50,761 bases of DNA, taken from NCBI GenBank assembly GCA_040143965.1, contig JASJQH010000017.1, positions 1 to 50,761 on the forward strand. Direction: 5' to 3'. Source of the stretch: Basidiobolus ranarum. Taxonomy: Eukaryota. This document shows, one piece after another, positions 32,221-38,379 of the stretch (position 1 is the first letter of the stretch; each line of letters begins with the position of its first letter). A model generated the notes under the pieces. The model saw only the letters and a program-made list of their open reading frames with translations. It ran no database searches and was not told the DNA's origin. A program made the translations under genes and the position numbers.

Positions 32221-33405
32221 ATGAGAACACCAAATTTTCGATATTTCGTGGGAAGTAGTTGGTTACCTAAGGTACCAAGAACCATAAAGAATGCTCAAGT
32301 TCCGGGAGTACCCAAACTTGCCATTAATTTGACCGAAAAAATTCAATTACCTGGCAAGGTAGATGCTGGTGAAGACGCGCTTTTTGAATCTCTAACAGCA
32401 ACACGTGCAGTTCTAGGTAACTCAAACACTTTCACCAATTTTCTTCTAAAAAAACCTCTCATGACAATGTTTAACAACCAACCCATTTATTCAAGGTGTT
32501 GCTGACGGTGTTGGTGGTTGGGCTGAGGTTAGTCCTTTTTGAATAGATGTTTTCCTTTAATTATATCTTAAATAACTTGGAAAAGTCAGGTGTAGATCCG
32601 GCTGTATTCTCTTGGACACTCATGAATAACTGTAGTGAAATAGCAGAGTTAAAGCAAAACGCTTCACTTCACCCAGGAGACATTTTATCTCAGGCATATA
32701 AAAAATTGCTCGAGGAAGGGAAGGTGGATGCAGGTAATCATTCGATCCTTTCCAGAATTCCCTCCAATGGAATCTCTAACAAAGCGTTGAATATTTCAGG
32801 GAGTAGTACAGCTTGCCTCTTAGGACTTTCTAAAGCCACAGGTAATATGGAATCGGCCAATCTTGGTGATTCTTCGTATTTAATCATTCGTGATGAGCAA
32901 GTACTATATCGCTCGAAAGAACAACAGCATTATTTTAATTGCCCATATCAGCTCACTGTACTCCCCAAAGATCACCCGAATCGCGATAATTACTGTCTAG
33001 ATGAACCATCACAAGCATTCCGTGGCTCACATCAACTCGAGGATAATGATATCGTGATCCTAGGAACCGATGGGTACTTTGATAATGTCTTCGATAGGGA
33101 CACCATATCCATCATGAAATTGATCAAGAACGAACTGAAAGGATTTAATGAAAATTCTGAAGATCAAGGAACGCTGAATGGTGTACAAAAGATGGCTGAA
33201 ACTCTAACTTTTGTCGCTAAACGATTGGCCATGGATAGAAGAAGAATATCGCCCTGGGCTAGAGGCGCTCGTGCGGCAGGAGCCCACAATGAGATCGGAG
33301 GGTAAGTAGAGGTGTGATCTTTTCTTCTTGTTCTTCTTTTAATATCTTCTTGGTAGGAAACTCGACGACATCACAGTTATGGTCACTTTAGTTCGTGGGA
33401 ATTAA
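32221..33405 (+). CDS. PTC7: PP2C-family protein phosphatase Ptc7 homolog, 5 exons
   Basis: Motifs DAGEDA, L|GVADGVGGWAE, GVDPAVFS, A|GSSTAC, ANLGDS, EQQHYFNCPYQL, GTDGYFDNVF and GG|KLDDITV are all present. Confidence 0.92.
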
Positions 33406-33635: not shown

Positions 33636-35603
33636 TTATTTGGTCACGAGGATTTTCTTCAAATCTTTGTCAGTGGGATATTCTACTTGTCCAGTAGTAG
33701 TATGAAGTGATGTAAGTGGTGGAACTGGCTTCGATGATTCAGCCAGGTATTTGGTAAACACTGGGGATACAGGTGTTCTATCTAGGCTTTTTTTCTGAAT
33801 GGTTGGGGATGGAGGGGCGGAGAAGGATCTACTTGCTTTGGAGGGATTCAAACGAGGCGATGAGGGTGCTGAGCTCACTTTTGCTTCTTCATATGGTATG
33901 ATCTTAATTGGTGCCGGCTTATTCTTCTGATTTTTACCATTGGAACTGATATCAGTTGAGGAAATGGGCCCGCTTTCATTCCAGAAGCTAGGATTTATGA
34001 CAGATCGTCTTTGAGGCTTTGGTGATGGCTGAGACTGAGACTGAGGCTGAATACCCCTAGCTGGCTCGTCTTTGGCCTTTCGGCCCGCTTTGCCTCGTAG
34101 CTTTTTCATTAGTTGTATTGGTTTAAAGGGTCGCATGAAGTGCTTTTGTTTGGCTGGATGTTCCTCAGTAGCTGATCGCTCTGACGGTAAAACAATCGGT
34201 GCAAGGGGTATTATCGGGGGCACTTTAGAGGTGGAGGGGATACCAATGGCTGAATCTATATCTTGGGACAAGGGCGGCTCCCTTACTTCCTCTGTTTGTG
34301 GGCCCACAGCGTTCTCTAGCATTCTTTCTTTACCCATAGCGATCGCTTCTATATTACATTTATGAAATAAGCTCCAATGACTATAATATGGGATTTGTAT
34401 CGAAAAAGACAGTTACTTTTGTTTCTCAGTGTCTTCCGTCTCCAAGAAATAAACAAGGTAATTATAGTTAGAGCTACCACTCCACCTAATACGGAAAATC
34501 CGATAATTATATTTCTTTTATCCTCAGTGCTTTGACGATCGACCGGGGTTGATGATTGGCTGGGTGGAATGGTCCCTACTGATTGTACAATTAGTTTAGA
34601 GGATTATAGTACTGCGAATTGGTACTGCTGATCACTTACGTGCACATGATTGCAAATTCTCTATTCCAGTGCAAATTGCTGATACATTGGATGACTTGCA
34701 TGACCACTCGTTTGAGCCACCAAGATCACAATGAGCACCTTGCTTCTCCATCTGAATGTTGGGCACTTGGCCAGTGAAATTATTTCCACGCAGACCACTG
34801 AAATATTCCATCAGATTAAAAAGAAAGTTATGAGGCGTAGATCAAAGTATGCTTTACATGTAAGTGGCAGATCGAAGTTCACTGATGGCCGATGGTATAC
34901 TACCACTAAGTCTATTTTCATTGAGATTTCTAGAGAGGATGGTAAGCATGAAAAGTACCCCCTTGGAAATGAGCGATGGAGAACTTACATGTATTTCAGT
35001 GGAAGCTGAACTAACTCGGTGGGAACAGATCCGATGAATTGGGACCGGAATATAGAGCTGTACTTGAATTATTCAGCAATATACCCAATCAATAGAAATA
35101 TCTTATTTAGACTTACAAAACTCTCAATCGTTTTAAATTACCAATGGACGCCGGGATATTGCCAGTAGTTCGCGTGTTGATCAGGGATCTTGAGAATAGA
35201 AAGAACGTAAGAATGTTGTAACAATTGAGGCGAAAGAACCCGATCTACTCACAAAACTCTAAGACGTCTCAATTTGCCTATATCCGTAGGTAAAGTACCG
35301 CCAAGATTGTTGTCGATGAACATTCTAAATTCAGAGTTAGCTCAGGAAACGGAAGCATAAAGATTTCTATACACACAGTTGCTCCACACGGTCATGTTTG
35401 CAAACTACGCCAAACCAAGTACAACAGTCCTCGTTAGTTGCATTCTCCCAGCCTTGCTTATTATGCCAATCTGAAGGGCCAAGTAGGCTGGGGTAAAAGA
35501 ATCGACGCAAGTAGGTGCAGTCATGCTTGTTAGCAACCACTCTATTCCAAAATTGAACATAAACCAAAAAAGTGACCAAGCTAAAGTTCGAAAGGAGCAG
35601 CAT
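33636..35603 (-). CDS. Type I membrane LRR receptor-like protein (signal peptide, LRRNT, about 5 plant-type LRRs, Cys-rich cap, TM helix, Pro/Ser/Lys-rich cytoplasmic tail), 8 exons, about 514 aa
   Basis: Exons 35603-35377, 35324-35253, 35188-35117, 35057-34989, 34929-34858, 34797-34640, 34578-34417 and 34348-33636 all have GT-AG borders and join in one frame (1545 nt). Motifs are DCCTWFGVVC, NNLGGTLPTDIGKLRRLRVL, GNIPASIGNLKRLRVL, LNENRLSGSIPSAISEL and LRGNNFTGQVP. The TM helix IIIGFSVLGGVVALTIITLFISW is followed by RRK. Confidence 0.85.
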
Positions 35604-36160
35604 AGGTTCAGCTTATAATACAAGGATTGAAATCTCTTCTCACACGGCCACTTAGCTGATTATATAATGAGAATATGTTATCAGGGATTCTAGTGTTTTA
35701 TCGAGTATTTTATCGAAATCAAGATTTTTAACAGAGGATCTACATGACTATGCAATGTGCAAAGCAGAAATTAATGCTATTTACTACATCTACCTGCTCA
35801 AGTACTCCCCAGCTTTCAGGCGATGATTCCGAGATGACCGTTCTTGCTGACGAAGCAGGTGTAAGTAATCTTATGCGTCAGTTGCCAACGTGAAATCAAC
35901 GCATATATCGCCAGAAGGCTTCTTCAGAGGACTGATGTCTATGTAGAATAAGCAAACCCATCATTGAACTATGCAAGAAGAGCAGGTTGAAATGACCCAC
36001 CCCATCTAGGGATAGAGTCAACATGATGTGCTACAGAAATCCAAAAAGGGGTCATTACCATATTGTACATTTGTGGTGAAGAAAATAGATTCGTTGGGGG
36101 AGGGGCAGGGAAGAGAATAAGTTCCCTACTGTAACTACGTGTTGTGAAAATGTACTGTCA

Positions 36161-37604
36161 CTATATGAATCGTGGCATGAAGATCGTCAAGGTAGCGATC
36201 CACACTACCAGTATGAAAACAAGATTATATGCGCTGGCAGAACTCTCTGCTTGGTAGAACATCTTAAAGGGTTGAAATAATCGGGTGAAATTGTGGTTAG
36301 TTTGATAGCCAGCCAGTAGGTCATTTGAGGCTTTGAGATATTCGGGATTTTGATAAATCAGGTAGGCTGTCTGCAGACTCCTGGCATAGATGACGGTGGA
36401 ATTAAATCCACCTATATTTGAATATGGCCAACTACGTGGATTGCGCGCGTAAGGTAAAAGGTAGTCAATTGCTTTCCGGATACTGCGACCATCTGGAGTT
36501 TCGTAATGCCATAAATCCACTCCCACCCTGGATGCCAGTGAAGCCAACAGTACCAGTCCGTTGAGGTTGAATACAGAATAGAACCAGGAGGCTGCACGTG
36601 CTGTCTCATGAGGCTGCGATCCGTCCAAAGCTATCTGAGAAGCAATACGCGCCAATGTGGCATTTTGTGCCACTTTAATGGCCAAATCTTTGCGATTAAG
36701 AAAGATCGCGATTGACATATATTGACAATCAAAGTAGGTGGCTAAAAAAATTGTAAAATTTGAGACGAATTGTAACAAAGATTAACTATCAAATTGCACT
36801 CATGTACCGTGATTATTTTGAGACATTCTTTCTAATAAACCATGCTCACTGCTATCCAGCCACGAAACGTATGCTAAAAGCCAGTTTTTGAATCCTTCTG
36901 AATCGGATGGAAGCCAGAAGCGAGAACTCTGTAAATATGGAACTACATCAAACATATCGTTAATGGGACTAAAATCGATGATTCCCGTACGACGACCTTC
37001 AACTTGTCCTTTAATGAAAGAACCAAACTGAAGATGTGGGTTCATGCGTGTGGAATTATCCAAAAACCAAGTTCGCAGGCGAGTGATCGCTTTGATAGCG
37101 TAAGTATCATTATCAAAAAAGTAGTAACTCAAGCCTAGGACCTGAACCTCTCGAACCTGTAATATCAGAGATTGGGATGAGCAAACTCACTGGGTAACTA
37201 GAACGGTGAACACGTACCAGAGAACGAAACAACTTGTAGTCTGGAACTAATTCGATTTCTGGATTGATGTGACCATCACGGCGTATGTATGGAAGACCAT
37301 CCGGGGAATTACTGTTGGGCCAGAAATATCTAGCCAGAGAAAGATAGTCATGTGGGTCGTTACTGGGGGCTAACTGGCTCTTGTTCGTCACCGAATAGAC
37401 TGCTTCATTCAAAACTGCTTTATCTGCCAATCTCTTCAAGGTAAAGAAGGCATCCTGTAAACTTTGATCATACGCTTCTTGTTGCGCTTTGTTTTCGGCA
37501 AGAATTTGAGTATTGATGCTTACATGTGAGAATATCGTATTTTGGGAATGAACCACATGCATGGCTATCAATACTAAGGCCAACCACAATGTTAGGACAT
37601 TCAT
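36161..37604 (-). CDS. Secreted, probably GPI-anchored polysaccharide lyase with an Alginate_lyase-type domain (PL38-like), 3 exons
   Basis: The signal peptide is MNVLTLWLALVLIAMHVVHS. Core motifs are APSNDPHDYLSLARYFWP...GLPYIRRDGHINPE, TWFLDNSTRMNPHLQFG, NNH|ATY and DGSQPHETARAASWFYSVFNL. The C-terminus has SSASA followed by a hydrophobic tail. Confidence 0.85.
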
Positions 37605-38379
37605 AGGCGATTTAGGTATTATATCAACGCTCTTCAGGTGAAGGATATTCTTAACTCTACAAAGATATAGAAAACTAAAAAGCAGCTTTTGAAAGTGTAA
37701 GCGCCAAGTACGAGCGTATGAGAGAGTTCTTGTTGTACAATGCTTGAAGATTTCTCTGGTCAATCGCTCAGTTAAAAAGGAATCCAACTACATTCAACTT
37801 GATACATCCAGGTTTCTTGTATGTGTAACATTGTCAGAGCTACCGATTGGAGTCTGCCAACTAGGAATTTGTTCTCGGATTAATAGTCTGATAGTTCTAA
37901 ATGAGATAAAATCCCCGGAGATGGTATTTTAATGGCATGTAACTTACATGACGTATAATATGGACGTTTAAAACTGGGTAAAGGCTTATGATCTGGGACT
38001 AGACGTAATTGAACTCTCTGTAACAGCCACACATAAGAATGGCTGAGGTTTAACGGATCATTTTGGAGTAAGTTATGCTTATCCAACCAAATAAATCTAC
38101 GCTAAAAGTCCATGATATAAGGAGACATTCAAGGGTCCTGCATATCTTCAGATTAATACTTGTTATTTTATTATCGAACATGATGTGTAGTACGAGGCTA
38201 CGGATGTGCCGATCAAATCGATTTAAGGAGAAAAGGAGATTCATACGAAGGAGAAACAGGCATGTAAAAAATTACAAATTTTGAGGCCTCGAAACTCTAT
38301 ATCTATACATGTATGTGTGCTTTAATCCAATACCTTGAGATAAAATGGTATCTAAGCTTCCTAGAGAGCTGACTAGTGA

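Follow-up and report, generated by a model that had tools for sequence, protein, structure and literature searches.

An eight-exon gene of Basidiobolus ranarum for a predicted type I membrane protein with a leucine-rich repeat ectodomain and a genus-specific tail

Gene structure and public annotation

The window analysed is a whole contig of Basidiobolus ranarum (50,761 nt), and its minus strand carries, from 35603 to 33636, eight exons and seven introns that were modelled from the sequence as a single open frame of 514 aa. Exon 1 (35603-35377, 227 nt), whose start codon is the ATG at 35603-35601, codes for a hydrophobic, signal-peptide-like N-terminus and a four-Cys N-cap, its last residues providing the first positions of the first leucine-rich repeat (LRR). 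The next four exons, all on the minus strand like the rest, correspond to one repeat each: exon 2 (35324-35253, 72 nt) to LRR1, with an opening Met that is the start of the GenBank model, exon 3 (35188-35117, 72 nt) to LRR2, exon 4 (35057-34989, 69 nt) to LRR3, a 23-residue repeat, and exon 5 (34929-34858, 72 nt), which ends at the donor GTAAAG, to LRR4. Exon 6 (34797-34640, 158 nt) holds LRR5 and a four-Cys C-terminal cap, exon 7 (34578-34417, 162 nt) a stalk rich in Ser, Thr and Pro, a transmembrane (TM) helix and an RRK stop-transfer, and exon 8 (34348-33636, 713 nt including the stop at 33638-33636) the predicted cytoplasmic tail. A tandem acceptor at 34575 would shorten exon 7 to 159 nt and the product to 513 aa; both acceptors are in frame, and the GenBank model has chosen 34575. 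The frame of about 514 aa that the sequence-only reading had proposed, in which the open reading frames at 35367-35603 and 33636-34337 are joined via six small exons and seven junctions, was recovered, together with its order of domains.

All seven introns are bounded by GT and AG and measure 52-68 nt. A CTNAY branch-like motif lies 12-19 nt from the acceptor in six of them, a count reached by 8 of 2000 shuffles; the sole intron lacking the motif is intron 3, upstream of exon 4, while intron 7 and its donor GTAACT, the last of the gene, are the least canonical of the set. The intron after exon 1 lies in phase 2 and follows repeat position 4, as do the introns at the next four boundaries of LRR exons. 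Recent exon duplication as the source of these periodic introns was rejected because an alignment of the four exon-plus-intron units revealed no similarity extending into the introns; an old exon duplication is possible. The coding sequence has a GC content of 44.5%, the neighbouring open reading frames 38-43% and the introns 34.8%, and the composition of the coding sequence is native-like. No second copy of the gene was found in the 50.8-kb contig by tblastn.

The gene had been described as hidden, which does not hold for most of its length, as exons 2-8 are already deposited in GenBank as the 437-aa hypothetical protein K7432_000884 (P0001) and carry the UniRef name "L domain-like protein"; only exon 1 is therefore absent from the public model. 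Exon 1 aligns over 100% of its length with the N-terminus of P0002, the B. meristosporus orthologue, at 64% identity, the similarity ending exactly at the predicted exon 1 donor, and P0002 alone among five candidates was a relative of this exon. In the B. meristosporus model, N-terminus, TM and tail are joined in one protein, which is 46% identical to the B. ranarum product over 390 aligned columns and retains the TM and all eight Cys, including the four of the C-terminal cap; this identity and the kept Cys are read as a sign of selection. LRR2, the repeat of exon 3, and its counterpart in P0002 show 71% identity. The P0002 model has no LRR1, LRR3 or LRR4, and its last intron is read through; these departures may reflect mis-annotation or a real difference, and intron sequence seems to have been kept in the entry.

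The gene is older than the split between B. ranarum and B. meristosporus. At the level of sequence, the eight-exon gene in one frame is confirmed as real in B. ranarum, and two public models are corrected: the B. ranarum entry, which lacks the exon for the signal peptide and N-cap, and the B. meristosporus entry.

Predicted extracellular module, membrane segment and tail

From N- to C-terminus the protein consists of the signal-peptide-like segment, the N-cap, five LRRs, the second four-Cys cap, the stalk, the TM segment and the tail. In the 514-aa model the Cys residues of the N-cap, which contains a C-x-W-x-G-V-x-C motif, stand at 29, 60, 61 and 68, and those of the C-terminal cap at 194, 204, 213 and 222. 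The G-x-x-P signature recurs at residues 85, 109, 133, 156 and 180, at intervals of 24, 24, 23 and 24 residues, and takes the form G-x-[ILV]-P in every repeat; position 9 of the repeat is Asn in three of the five and Thr or Ser in the other two. The plant-specific (PS) LRR class is defined by a length of about 24 residues and the consensus L-x-x-L-x-L-x-x-N-x-L-x-G-x-I-P, as given in PMC5296948. Both features, tandem repeats of about 24 residues and the G-x-I-P consensus, were found here, and by this consensus the five repeats are of the PS class, as had been proposed, the class being a structural one and not a clade.

Pfam, AF2 and database searches were run on P0001 (exons 2-8) and on exon 1 separately. 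Of the Pfam families, LRR_1 was recognised at P0001 residues 68-89, corresponding to LRR4 of exon 5 (30.6 bits; cut-off 20.6), while the two families that had been suggested for the check fell short: LRR_8 narrowly, with 26.1 bits on P0001 and a cut-off of 27, and LRRNT_2 (PF08263) scored 18.2 bits on exon 1 and 17.7 bits on P0002 with a gathering cut-off of 20.7. The LRRNT_2 match is limited to the last 18 profile positions, which are the C-x-W-x-G-V-x-C part. A search of the PDB with P0001 returned 122 sequences at E <= 0.001, headed by GSO1, FLS2, RGI and MIK2, and HMMER placed P0001 residues 3-108 in register with the repeats of GSO1 and FLS2; exon 1 matched the N-cap regions of PSKR1 and BRL3 weakly (E 0.17-1).

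In the AF2 model of exons 2-8, 107 residues reach a pLDDT of at least 90 over the LRR part, with values above 90 for exon 2 (LRR1) and of 71-92 for exon 6. The PDB matches that Foldseek listed within its ranks 1-50 are all plant LRR ectodomains, and the comparison with SERK proteins that had been suggested gave TM-scores by target of 0.50-0.59 for SERK1, SERK2, BAK1 and BIR3 at 25-35% identity. The nearest Atlas clusters were those of RLP51 (0.91) and BIR2 (0.87). As modelled, the ectodomain is shown to agree in size and in predicted fold with the small ectodomains of plant co-receptors (SERK/BAK1/BIR). N-glycosylation sequons occur at model residues 54, 177 and 208.

A single hydrophobic stretch at residues 246-269, with a Kyte-Doolittle peak of 2.5, is followed by RRK, which supports one predicted TM helix and a type I orientation in the membrane, the LRRs forming the ectodomain. 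Judged by eye, the N-terminus is probably a cleaved signal peptide, with the LRR module facing outward. Pfam found only LRR families and no kinase domain in P0001, which places the protein outside the LRR-RLKs.

The tail comprises about 245 aa after the TM segment, is composed of 14% Pro, 13% Ser and 11% Lys, and is predicted to be disordered (AF2 pLDDT mostly below 50). The 236 aa encoded by exon 8 matched zero Pfam families at E <= 1, in agreement with the kinase-less disordered tail claimed earlier. An exhaustive phmmer search with the tail among 1.84 billion representatives returned two matches only, P0001 itself and P0002, the latter at 55% identity; a word-based search among longer proteins likewise gave two matches, and the best Atlas score (0.84) lay under the lead level. 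Between the two Basidiobolus species, several blocks of the tail are conserved, among them an RRxS site, a number of S-P sites and the C-terminal ~35 residues. P-x-x-P and S-P motifs are present in the tail; such motifs are short, and their conservation could have other causes.

Origin and proposed function

The label "plant-type" does not mean a link to plants. Outside Basidiobolus, the highest-scoring match by a single domain is to a bacterial, T9SS-tailed protein (P0008; 71.8 bits, 45% identity over 104 columns), and bacterial and metagenomic proteins carry a C-x-W-x-G-V-x-C N-cap followed by the same repeat type. The LRR class is not plant-only, bacteria and protists having it too. Named relatives include two fungal proteins among the 90 matches listed. 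A tree was built from 71 segments spanning LRR1-4, namely P0001 and 70 of 89 matches; the 19 left out, P0002 among them, have no domain that covers 85 or more query residues counted from the query start. P0001 sits on no branch whose SH-aLRT reaches 95, and the rows of plants and bacteria are mixed; therefore neither a plant nor a bacterial donor is claimed.

On balance, and with somewhat better than even confidence, the locus is regarded as one gene native to Basidiobolus whose product would be a type I glycoprotein of the plasma membrane, in which an LRR ectodomain and the tail would make up a sensor or an adhesion-and-signalling protein. The concave face of the LRR module would bind a protein or peptide partner, and the kinase-less tail would serve as a docking and phosphorylation platform, the candidate sites being the conserved R-R-x-S, a number of S-P sites and the C-terminal ~35 residues. 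By analogy, the protein may act like the kinase-less fungal sensors Wsc1, Mid2, Msb2 and Opy2, or like plant receptor-like proteins, and not as an enzyme.

A surface protein with a structural or adhesive role and no signalling, for instance in cell-cell or cell-wall contact during development, with a tail that anchors or traffics it, is rather unlikely. The small ectodomain, its disulfide caps and its three sequons would suit such a role, as would a tail that is predicted disordered and has no catalytic or known signalling domain, but a long tail with blocks conserved at 55% identity between species is more than a simple anchor needs.

Improbable, too, is a fungal pattern-recognition or immune receptor resembling plant RLPs, whose LRRs would recognise a molecule of microbial or host origin and whose tail would engage kinases or SH3 proteins. 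Both by sequence and by fold, the ectodomains of plant receptors and co-receptors come nearest to this one, gut bacteria surround Basidiobolus in its habitat (PMC7466969), and the P-x-x-P and S-P motifs of the tail would fit the recruitment of such proteins. Against this, the tails of plant RLPs are short, whereas the Basidiobolus tail of ~245 aa is unrelated to anything; one copy per species turned up, and the matches listed, with two fungal proteins among 90, give no hint of a family that has expanded and diversified; and LRR modules are also used in adhesion and development.

Equally little weight is given to a common ancestry with streptophyte LRR receptor genes, by ancient retention or by transfer of a gene with introns; the locus would then be a gene for a co-receptor ectodomain of the SERK/ELS kind that was fused in the fungus to a genus-specific, phospho-regulated tail to sense a peptide or protein cue in a gut or soil community. 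This reading is raised because the layouts match, a first exon for signal peptide and N-cap being followed by a 72-nt exon per repeat. According to Table S3 of PMC7496461, plant LRR-RLK II and ELS genes have LRR exons of 72, 144, 72 and 72 nt, and signal peptide and N-cap share the first exon of ELS (222 or 212 nt); the Basidiobolus exons of 227, 72, 72, 69 and 72 nt resemble this plant layout in size, the comparison being one of exon sizes, and the intron register of plant SERK genes may differ. If this reading is true, the fungal kingdom would have here its first surface receptor pathway built on a kinase-less LRR protein.

That the locus is not one gene, with either a secreted LRR protein ending before the TM or tail exon or a separately translated tail, is very improbable. 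Intron 7 and its donor GTAACT depart furthest from the canonical signals, and an in-frame ATG stands just past the acceptor, the fifth codon of the tail open reading frame being Met; however, the 34417/34348 junction is also present in the GenBank model P0001, TM and tail lie in one protein in the B. meristosporus model, conservation begins right at the acceptor, three residues ahead of the tail Met, and a TM helix with RRK that ended there would be unusual. Recent transfer of an LRR gene from a bacterium or a plant, followed by drift without function, is just as hard to credit: the nearest match by a single domain comes from a bacterium, PMC7466969 reports that 2-5% of the gene models of Basidiobolus resemble transfers from bacteria, Bacteroidetes being one source, and no other fungal relatives were seen in the searches run, but the seven introns stand against a median of 0 in the Basidiobolus candidates for horizontal transfer (PMC7466969), the GC content is native-like, the frame is intact, all eight Cys are kept in two species and the fused tail is specific to Basidiobolus.

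The preferred reading, a native sensor or adhesion-and-signalling protein, concerns an architecture that is rare and uncharacterised in fungi and so far confined to one genus. Literature searches for Basidiobolus with leucine-rich repeat and for LRR receptors in Zoopagomycota found no surface LRR protein, and a search for early-diverging fungi with LRR and transmembrane gave nothing relevant among the matches listed. The gene offers a conserved example in a culturable early-diverging fungus, one copy having turned up per species, and the combination of an LRR ectodomain of plant co-receptor size with a tail that belongs to no known family is a concrete object on which LRR surface sensing in fungi can be tested. 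Its weight is limited by its occurrence in one genus only and by an LRR class that is shared with bacteria and protists.

Comparison with known receptors and sensors

The bacterial proteins of the PS class, including P0008, the metagenomic P0017, P0047 and P0048 and the LIC proteins of PDB entries 4u06, 4u08 and 4u09, have the repeat class in common with the Basidiobolus protein, and several of the bacterial and metagenomic ones bear the N-cap motif immediately ahead of their first repeat, as it does. They differ in having many more repeats and in their T9SS sorting, fn3 or Ig-like domains, and, unlike the Basidiobolus protein, they possess no four-Cys C-terminal cap, no eukaryotic TM-plus-tail and no introns.

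In plants, SERK1 and SERK2, BAK1, BIR3, ELS and the RLP51-, RLP29- and PII-2-like proteins share with the Basidiobolus protein the C-x-W-x-G-V-x-C N-cap, about five 24-residue PS LRRs, a C-terminal cap with Cys, a Pro/Ser-rich stalk and one TM segment. Plant LRR-RLPs consist of a signal peptide, extracellular LRRs, one TM helix and a short cytoplasmic tail; the Basidiobolus ectodomain and TM fit this description, but its tail of ~245 aa is not short, and in the tree of 71 segments no supported clade joins them. The plant receptor kinases carry a kinase, whereas the Basidiobolus protein has none and its tail is unrelated to plant tails. The C-terminal cap differs as well, four Cys being present in Basidiobolus and a single conserved Cys pair in LRR-RLK II, as described in PMC7496461.

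In fungi, proteins with LRRs and a single TM segment are nearly absent, five having been counted in four species (Soanes & Talbot 2010, PMC2939053), which bears out the scarcity asserted in the sequence-only reading. The hosts are one chytrid, two zygomycetes and one basidiomycete, and the proteins, which have no other domain, are uncharacterised in that survey; Basidiobolus does not seem to have been among the fungi surveyed. An "LRR-receptor" is defined there by at least one Pfam LRR above threshold and a single TM outside the signal peptide, and the Basidiobolus protein, with LRR_1 well above its threshold and one hydrophobic segment, falls under this definition (PMC2939053). The minimal architecture is shared with these five fungal proteins, the likeness being one of architecture only.

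The fungal sensors Wsc1, Mid2, Msb2 and Opy2 have a signal peptide, a glycosylated ectodomain, an S/T-rich stalk, one TM segment and a disordered tail that recruits partners. Their ectodomains are WSC, mucin-like or Cys-rich and not LRRs, and the tail search of 1.84 billion representatives returned none of the four. The Basidiobolus protein follows the same overall logic as these sensors, with no sequence relation to them.

A single gene for ectodomain, helix and tail

A single gene of Basidiobolus ranarum encodes a co-receptor-sized LRR ectodomain, one transmembrane (TM) helix and a conserved tail without any known domain. Rebuilt from the raw sequence of the window, which is a complete contig of 50,761 bp, it lies on the minus strand and comprises eight exons (35603-35377, 35324-35253, 35188-35117, 35057-34989, 34929-34858, 34797-34640, 34578-34417 and 34348-33636), with the frame open for 514 codons. 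All seven introns (52, 64, 59, 59, 60, 61 and 68 nt) are of the GT..AG type, and in six of them a branch-like motif (CTNAY) occurs at a distance of 12-19 nt from the acceptor, a count matched by only 8 of 2000 shuffles of intron interiors. The GC content is 44.5% in exons and 34.8% in introns, compared with 39.0% in the window and 38-43% in neighbouring long ORFs, so the gene looks native in composition.

The GenBank hypothetical protein K7432_000884 (P0001, 437 aa), to which the tail ORF was 100% identical in a protein search, corresponds exactly to exons 2-8; it begins at the Met opening exon 2 and hence lacks exon 1. The junction 34417/34348, doubted in the sequence-only reading, is present in this model. 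Along its entire length, exon 1 showed 64% identity to the N-terminal end of the B. meristosporus orthologue K493DRAFT_378253 (P0002), the sole match among five candidates and a protein whose N-terminal part and tail are covered by one gene model; the tblastn similarity of P0002 to the window ends exactly at the exon 1 donor. The phase-2 end of exon 1 also falls at the repeat position shared by the next four exon boundaries, so that the join completes the first repeat in register. Orthologue identity, the joint gene model in B. meristosporus, donor-edge match and register support, at the level of sequence, the assignment of exon 1 to the LRR gene.

A tandem (NAGNAG-type) acceptor is located at the start of exon 7 (34575-34578, minus strand), where position 34578 gives 514 aa and 34575, taken by the GenBank model, gives 513 aa, the frame being preserved by either. 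A TATA-like A/T stretch (~35658-35670, minus strand) precedes the start codon of exon 1 by about 55-65 nt, and an in-frame stop is found three codons upstream of this ATG; both are consistent with a transcription start just 5' of exon 1.

P0002 shares 46% identity with the B. ranarum protein over 390 aligned columns and keeps all eight Cys (4/4 in the N-cap and 4/4 in the C-cap), along with the TM segment and a number of blocks in the tail. It also bears about 30 unmatched residues after the N-cap, has no counterparts of LRR1, 3 and 4, and reads through the last intron. Residues ~75-102 (after the N-cap) and ~228-250 (after the TM helix) are seemingly translated intron sequence, and this public model probably needs re-annotation.

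Directly upstream of the LRR gene, two adjoining ORFs (36161-37787, minus strand) matched Pfam Alginate_lyase (PF05426), one with 110.3 bits over profile positions 172-275 and the other with 37.8 bits over 1-58; they probably belong to a single alginate lyase gene interrupted by an intron. This enzyme family seems unusual for a fungus, and the gene could be a transfer candidate. Downstream, a convergent 252-aa ORF (32547-33305, plus strand) gave a sub-threshold match to PP2C phosphatase (19.7 bits against a cut-off of 20.3) and probably represents a single exon of a PP2C-like gene.

Ectodomain, membrane anchor and tail

In the 514-aa model, the hydrophobic N-terminus has small residues ahead of a likely cleavage site at about residue 24, as judged by eye. 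It is followed by an N-cap (Cys 29, 60, 61 and 68, with C-x-W-x-G-V-x-C at its end), five repeats spaced by 24, 24, 23 and 24 residues with G-x-[ILV]-P in each, a second, C-terminal cap (Cys 194, 204, 213 and 222), a Ser/Thr/Pro-rich stalk of about 22 residues, and a single strong hydrophobic segment (residues 246-269) before RRK, an order identical to that proposed from sequence only. N-glycosylation sequons occur in the ectodomain at residues 54, 177 and 208. About 245 residues extend past the TM helix, with 14% Pro, 13% Ser and 11% Lys in residues 278-514.

The five repeats fit the 24-residue plant-specific LRR consensus given in PMC5296948, in agreement with the class first proposed. As for Pfam, LRR_1 scored above its cut-off on P0001 (30.6 against 20.6 bits), whereas LRR_8 fell just below (26.1 against 27) and LRRNT_2 on exon 1 did not reach formal membership (18.2 against 20.7). 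A PDB sequence search returned 122 distinct matches at E <= 0.001, headed by GSO1, FLS2, RGI, MIK2, PEPR1 and ERL1, and only five non-plant entries (three LIC proteins and two LRRD1) were among the best 60.

The AF2 model of P0001, built on a 30-row alignment, had a mean pLDDT of at least 90 in each 10-residue block of residues 11-120, a low-confidence helix over the TM region, and pLDDT mostly below 50 in the tail. When the PDB was searched with Foldseek, all rows listed at ranks 1-50 were plant LRR ectodomains, which is partly a sampling effect, since plant LRRs abound in the PDB and bacterial LRRs of this class are scarce there. The small co-receptor ectodomains SERK1, SERK2, BAK1 and BIR3 gave the best coverage, with TM-scores by target of 0.50-0.59. 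The nearest ESM Atlas clusters were RLP51 (0.91) and BIR2 (0.87), and the structural matches included plant as well as bacterial LRR clusters (TM 0.62-0.69).

No Pfam family was detected in the tail, in keeping with the predicted lack of a kinase. Exhaustive HMMER over 1.84 billion representatives found no tail relatives outside P0001 and P0002, and no ESM Atlas match to the tail reached 0.85; by these searches the tail is a Basidiobolus-specific region. AF2 predicted the tail to be disordered, apart from a short helix and a hairpin within the conserved block at the C-terminus. Comparison with P0002 revealed conservation in blocks: a short one adjoining the last acceptor, an R-R-x-S site with N-P-S-F-W behind it, a Lys/Pro block, two S-P clusters and the last ~35 residues. 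This block-wise pattern suggests short linear motifs, which would be candidate phosphorylation or docking sites.

Relatives and origin

A word-indexed homologue search limited to lengths of 240-765 aa gave 90 proteins at E <= 0.001 from 788 candidates, which by source name or domain content were 2 Basidiobolus, 51 streptophyte, 8 bacterial (six by T9SS sorting domain, two inferred from other bacterial-type domains) and 29 unnamed; with such a search, the absence of other fungi is weak evidence. Ranking by best single domain, which strips the bonus of many-repeat proteins, placed P0002 first (80.8 bits), followed by the T9SS-tailed bacterial P0008 (71.8), metagenomic P0017 (68.6), and plants and others (46-63). 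In the bacterial or bacterial-like P0017, P0047 and P0048, the first repeat is likewise immediately preceded by the cap motif, of which P0008 has a Cys-less variant. The "plant-type" label thus holds for the repeat class but is not plant-only, and, judged by these shared caps and repeats, does not imply plant origin. The short unnamed homologues P0019 and P0020 have the same repeat class, P0020 having in addition a C-terminal region rich in Cys. Both look eukaryotic, neither bacterial nor plant, and could stem from other microbial eukaryotes that possess small LRR surface proteins of a similar kind.

A maximum-likelihood tree of the LRR1-4 segment (71 rows; 19 of 89 matches were left out, having no full-length domain match) gave no supported branch with the Basidiobolus protein, plant and bacterial rows being interleaved; the top identity among its segments was 45%, to P0008. 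According to PMC7466969, 2-5% of Basidiobolus gene models resemble bacterial transfers, with Bacteroidetes among the sources, which points to bacterial transfer, while the median intron number is 0 in the transfer candidates versus 2 in fungal genes, so that seven introns argue against a recent one. In plant LRR-RLK II genes and their kinase-less ELS relatives, the LRR exons measure 72, 144, 72 and 72 nt, and the first ELS exon of 222 or 212 nt holds the signal peptide and N-cap (PMC7496461, Table S3). The Basidiobolus exons of 227, 72, 72, 69 and 72 nt are alike in layout, as far as sizes rather than intron positions are compared.

Duplication of exons is another possible source of periodic introns. 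Alignment of four exon-plus-intron units showed no similarity reaching into introns, which rejects a recent duplication and makes any duplication old. Three origins are left standing: an old bacterial transfer with introns gained later, a link to streptophyte-like genes through transfer or common descent, and ancient retention accompanied by loss in other fungi.

Possible function and comparison with known receptors

Soanes and Talbot defined LRR-receptors by at least one Pfam LRR and a single TM helix, and found them almost absent from fungi, with five examples from four species, namely a chytrid, two zygomycetes and Postia, and no further domain in any of them (PMC2939053). With LRR_1 above cut-off and one hydrophobic segment, the protein falls within this definition, and Basidiobolus joins the short list. 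Because it lacks a kinase, the protein is not an LRR-RLK but an LRR receptor-like protein, found in an unusual host and bearing a tail that belongs to no known family. The literature searches brought up no publication on a protein of this kind from Basidiobolus or Zoopagomycota, and the supplement of PMC2939053 may name zygomycete relatives.

We somewhat favour a surface sensor or adhesion-and-signalling protein. A purely structural or adhesive role, to be set against the block-wise conserved tail, is unlikely, and a true immune receptor, as entertained in the sequence-only reading, is more doubtful still. A split gene is highly improbable, and so is a drifting transfer relic. As a surface sensor, the protein would be inserted in the membrane via secretion with the LRR part outside, the ectodomain would bind a protein or peptide partner, and the tail may transmit information or take regulation. 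Kinase-less plant RLPs and fungal sensors of the Wsc, Mid2, Msb2 and Opy2 type work through a tail without a kinase of their own, and the Basidiobolus protein may operate by analogy in the same manner.
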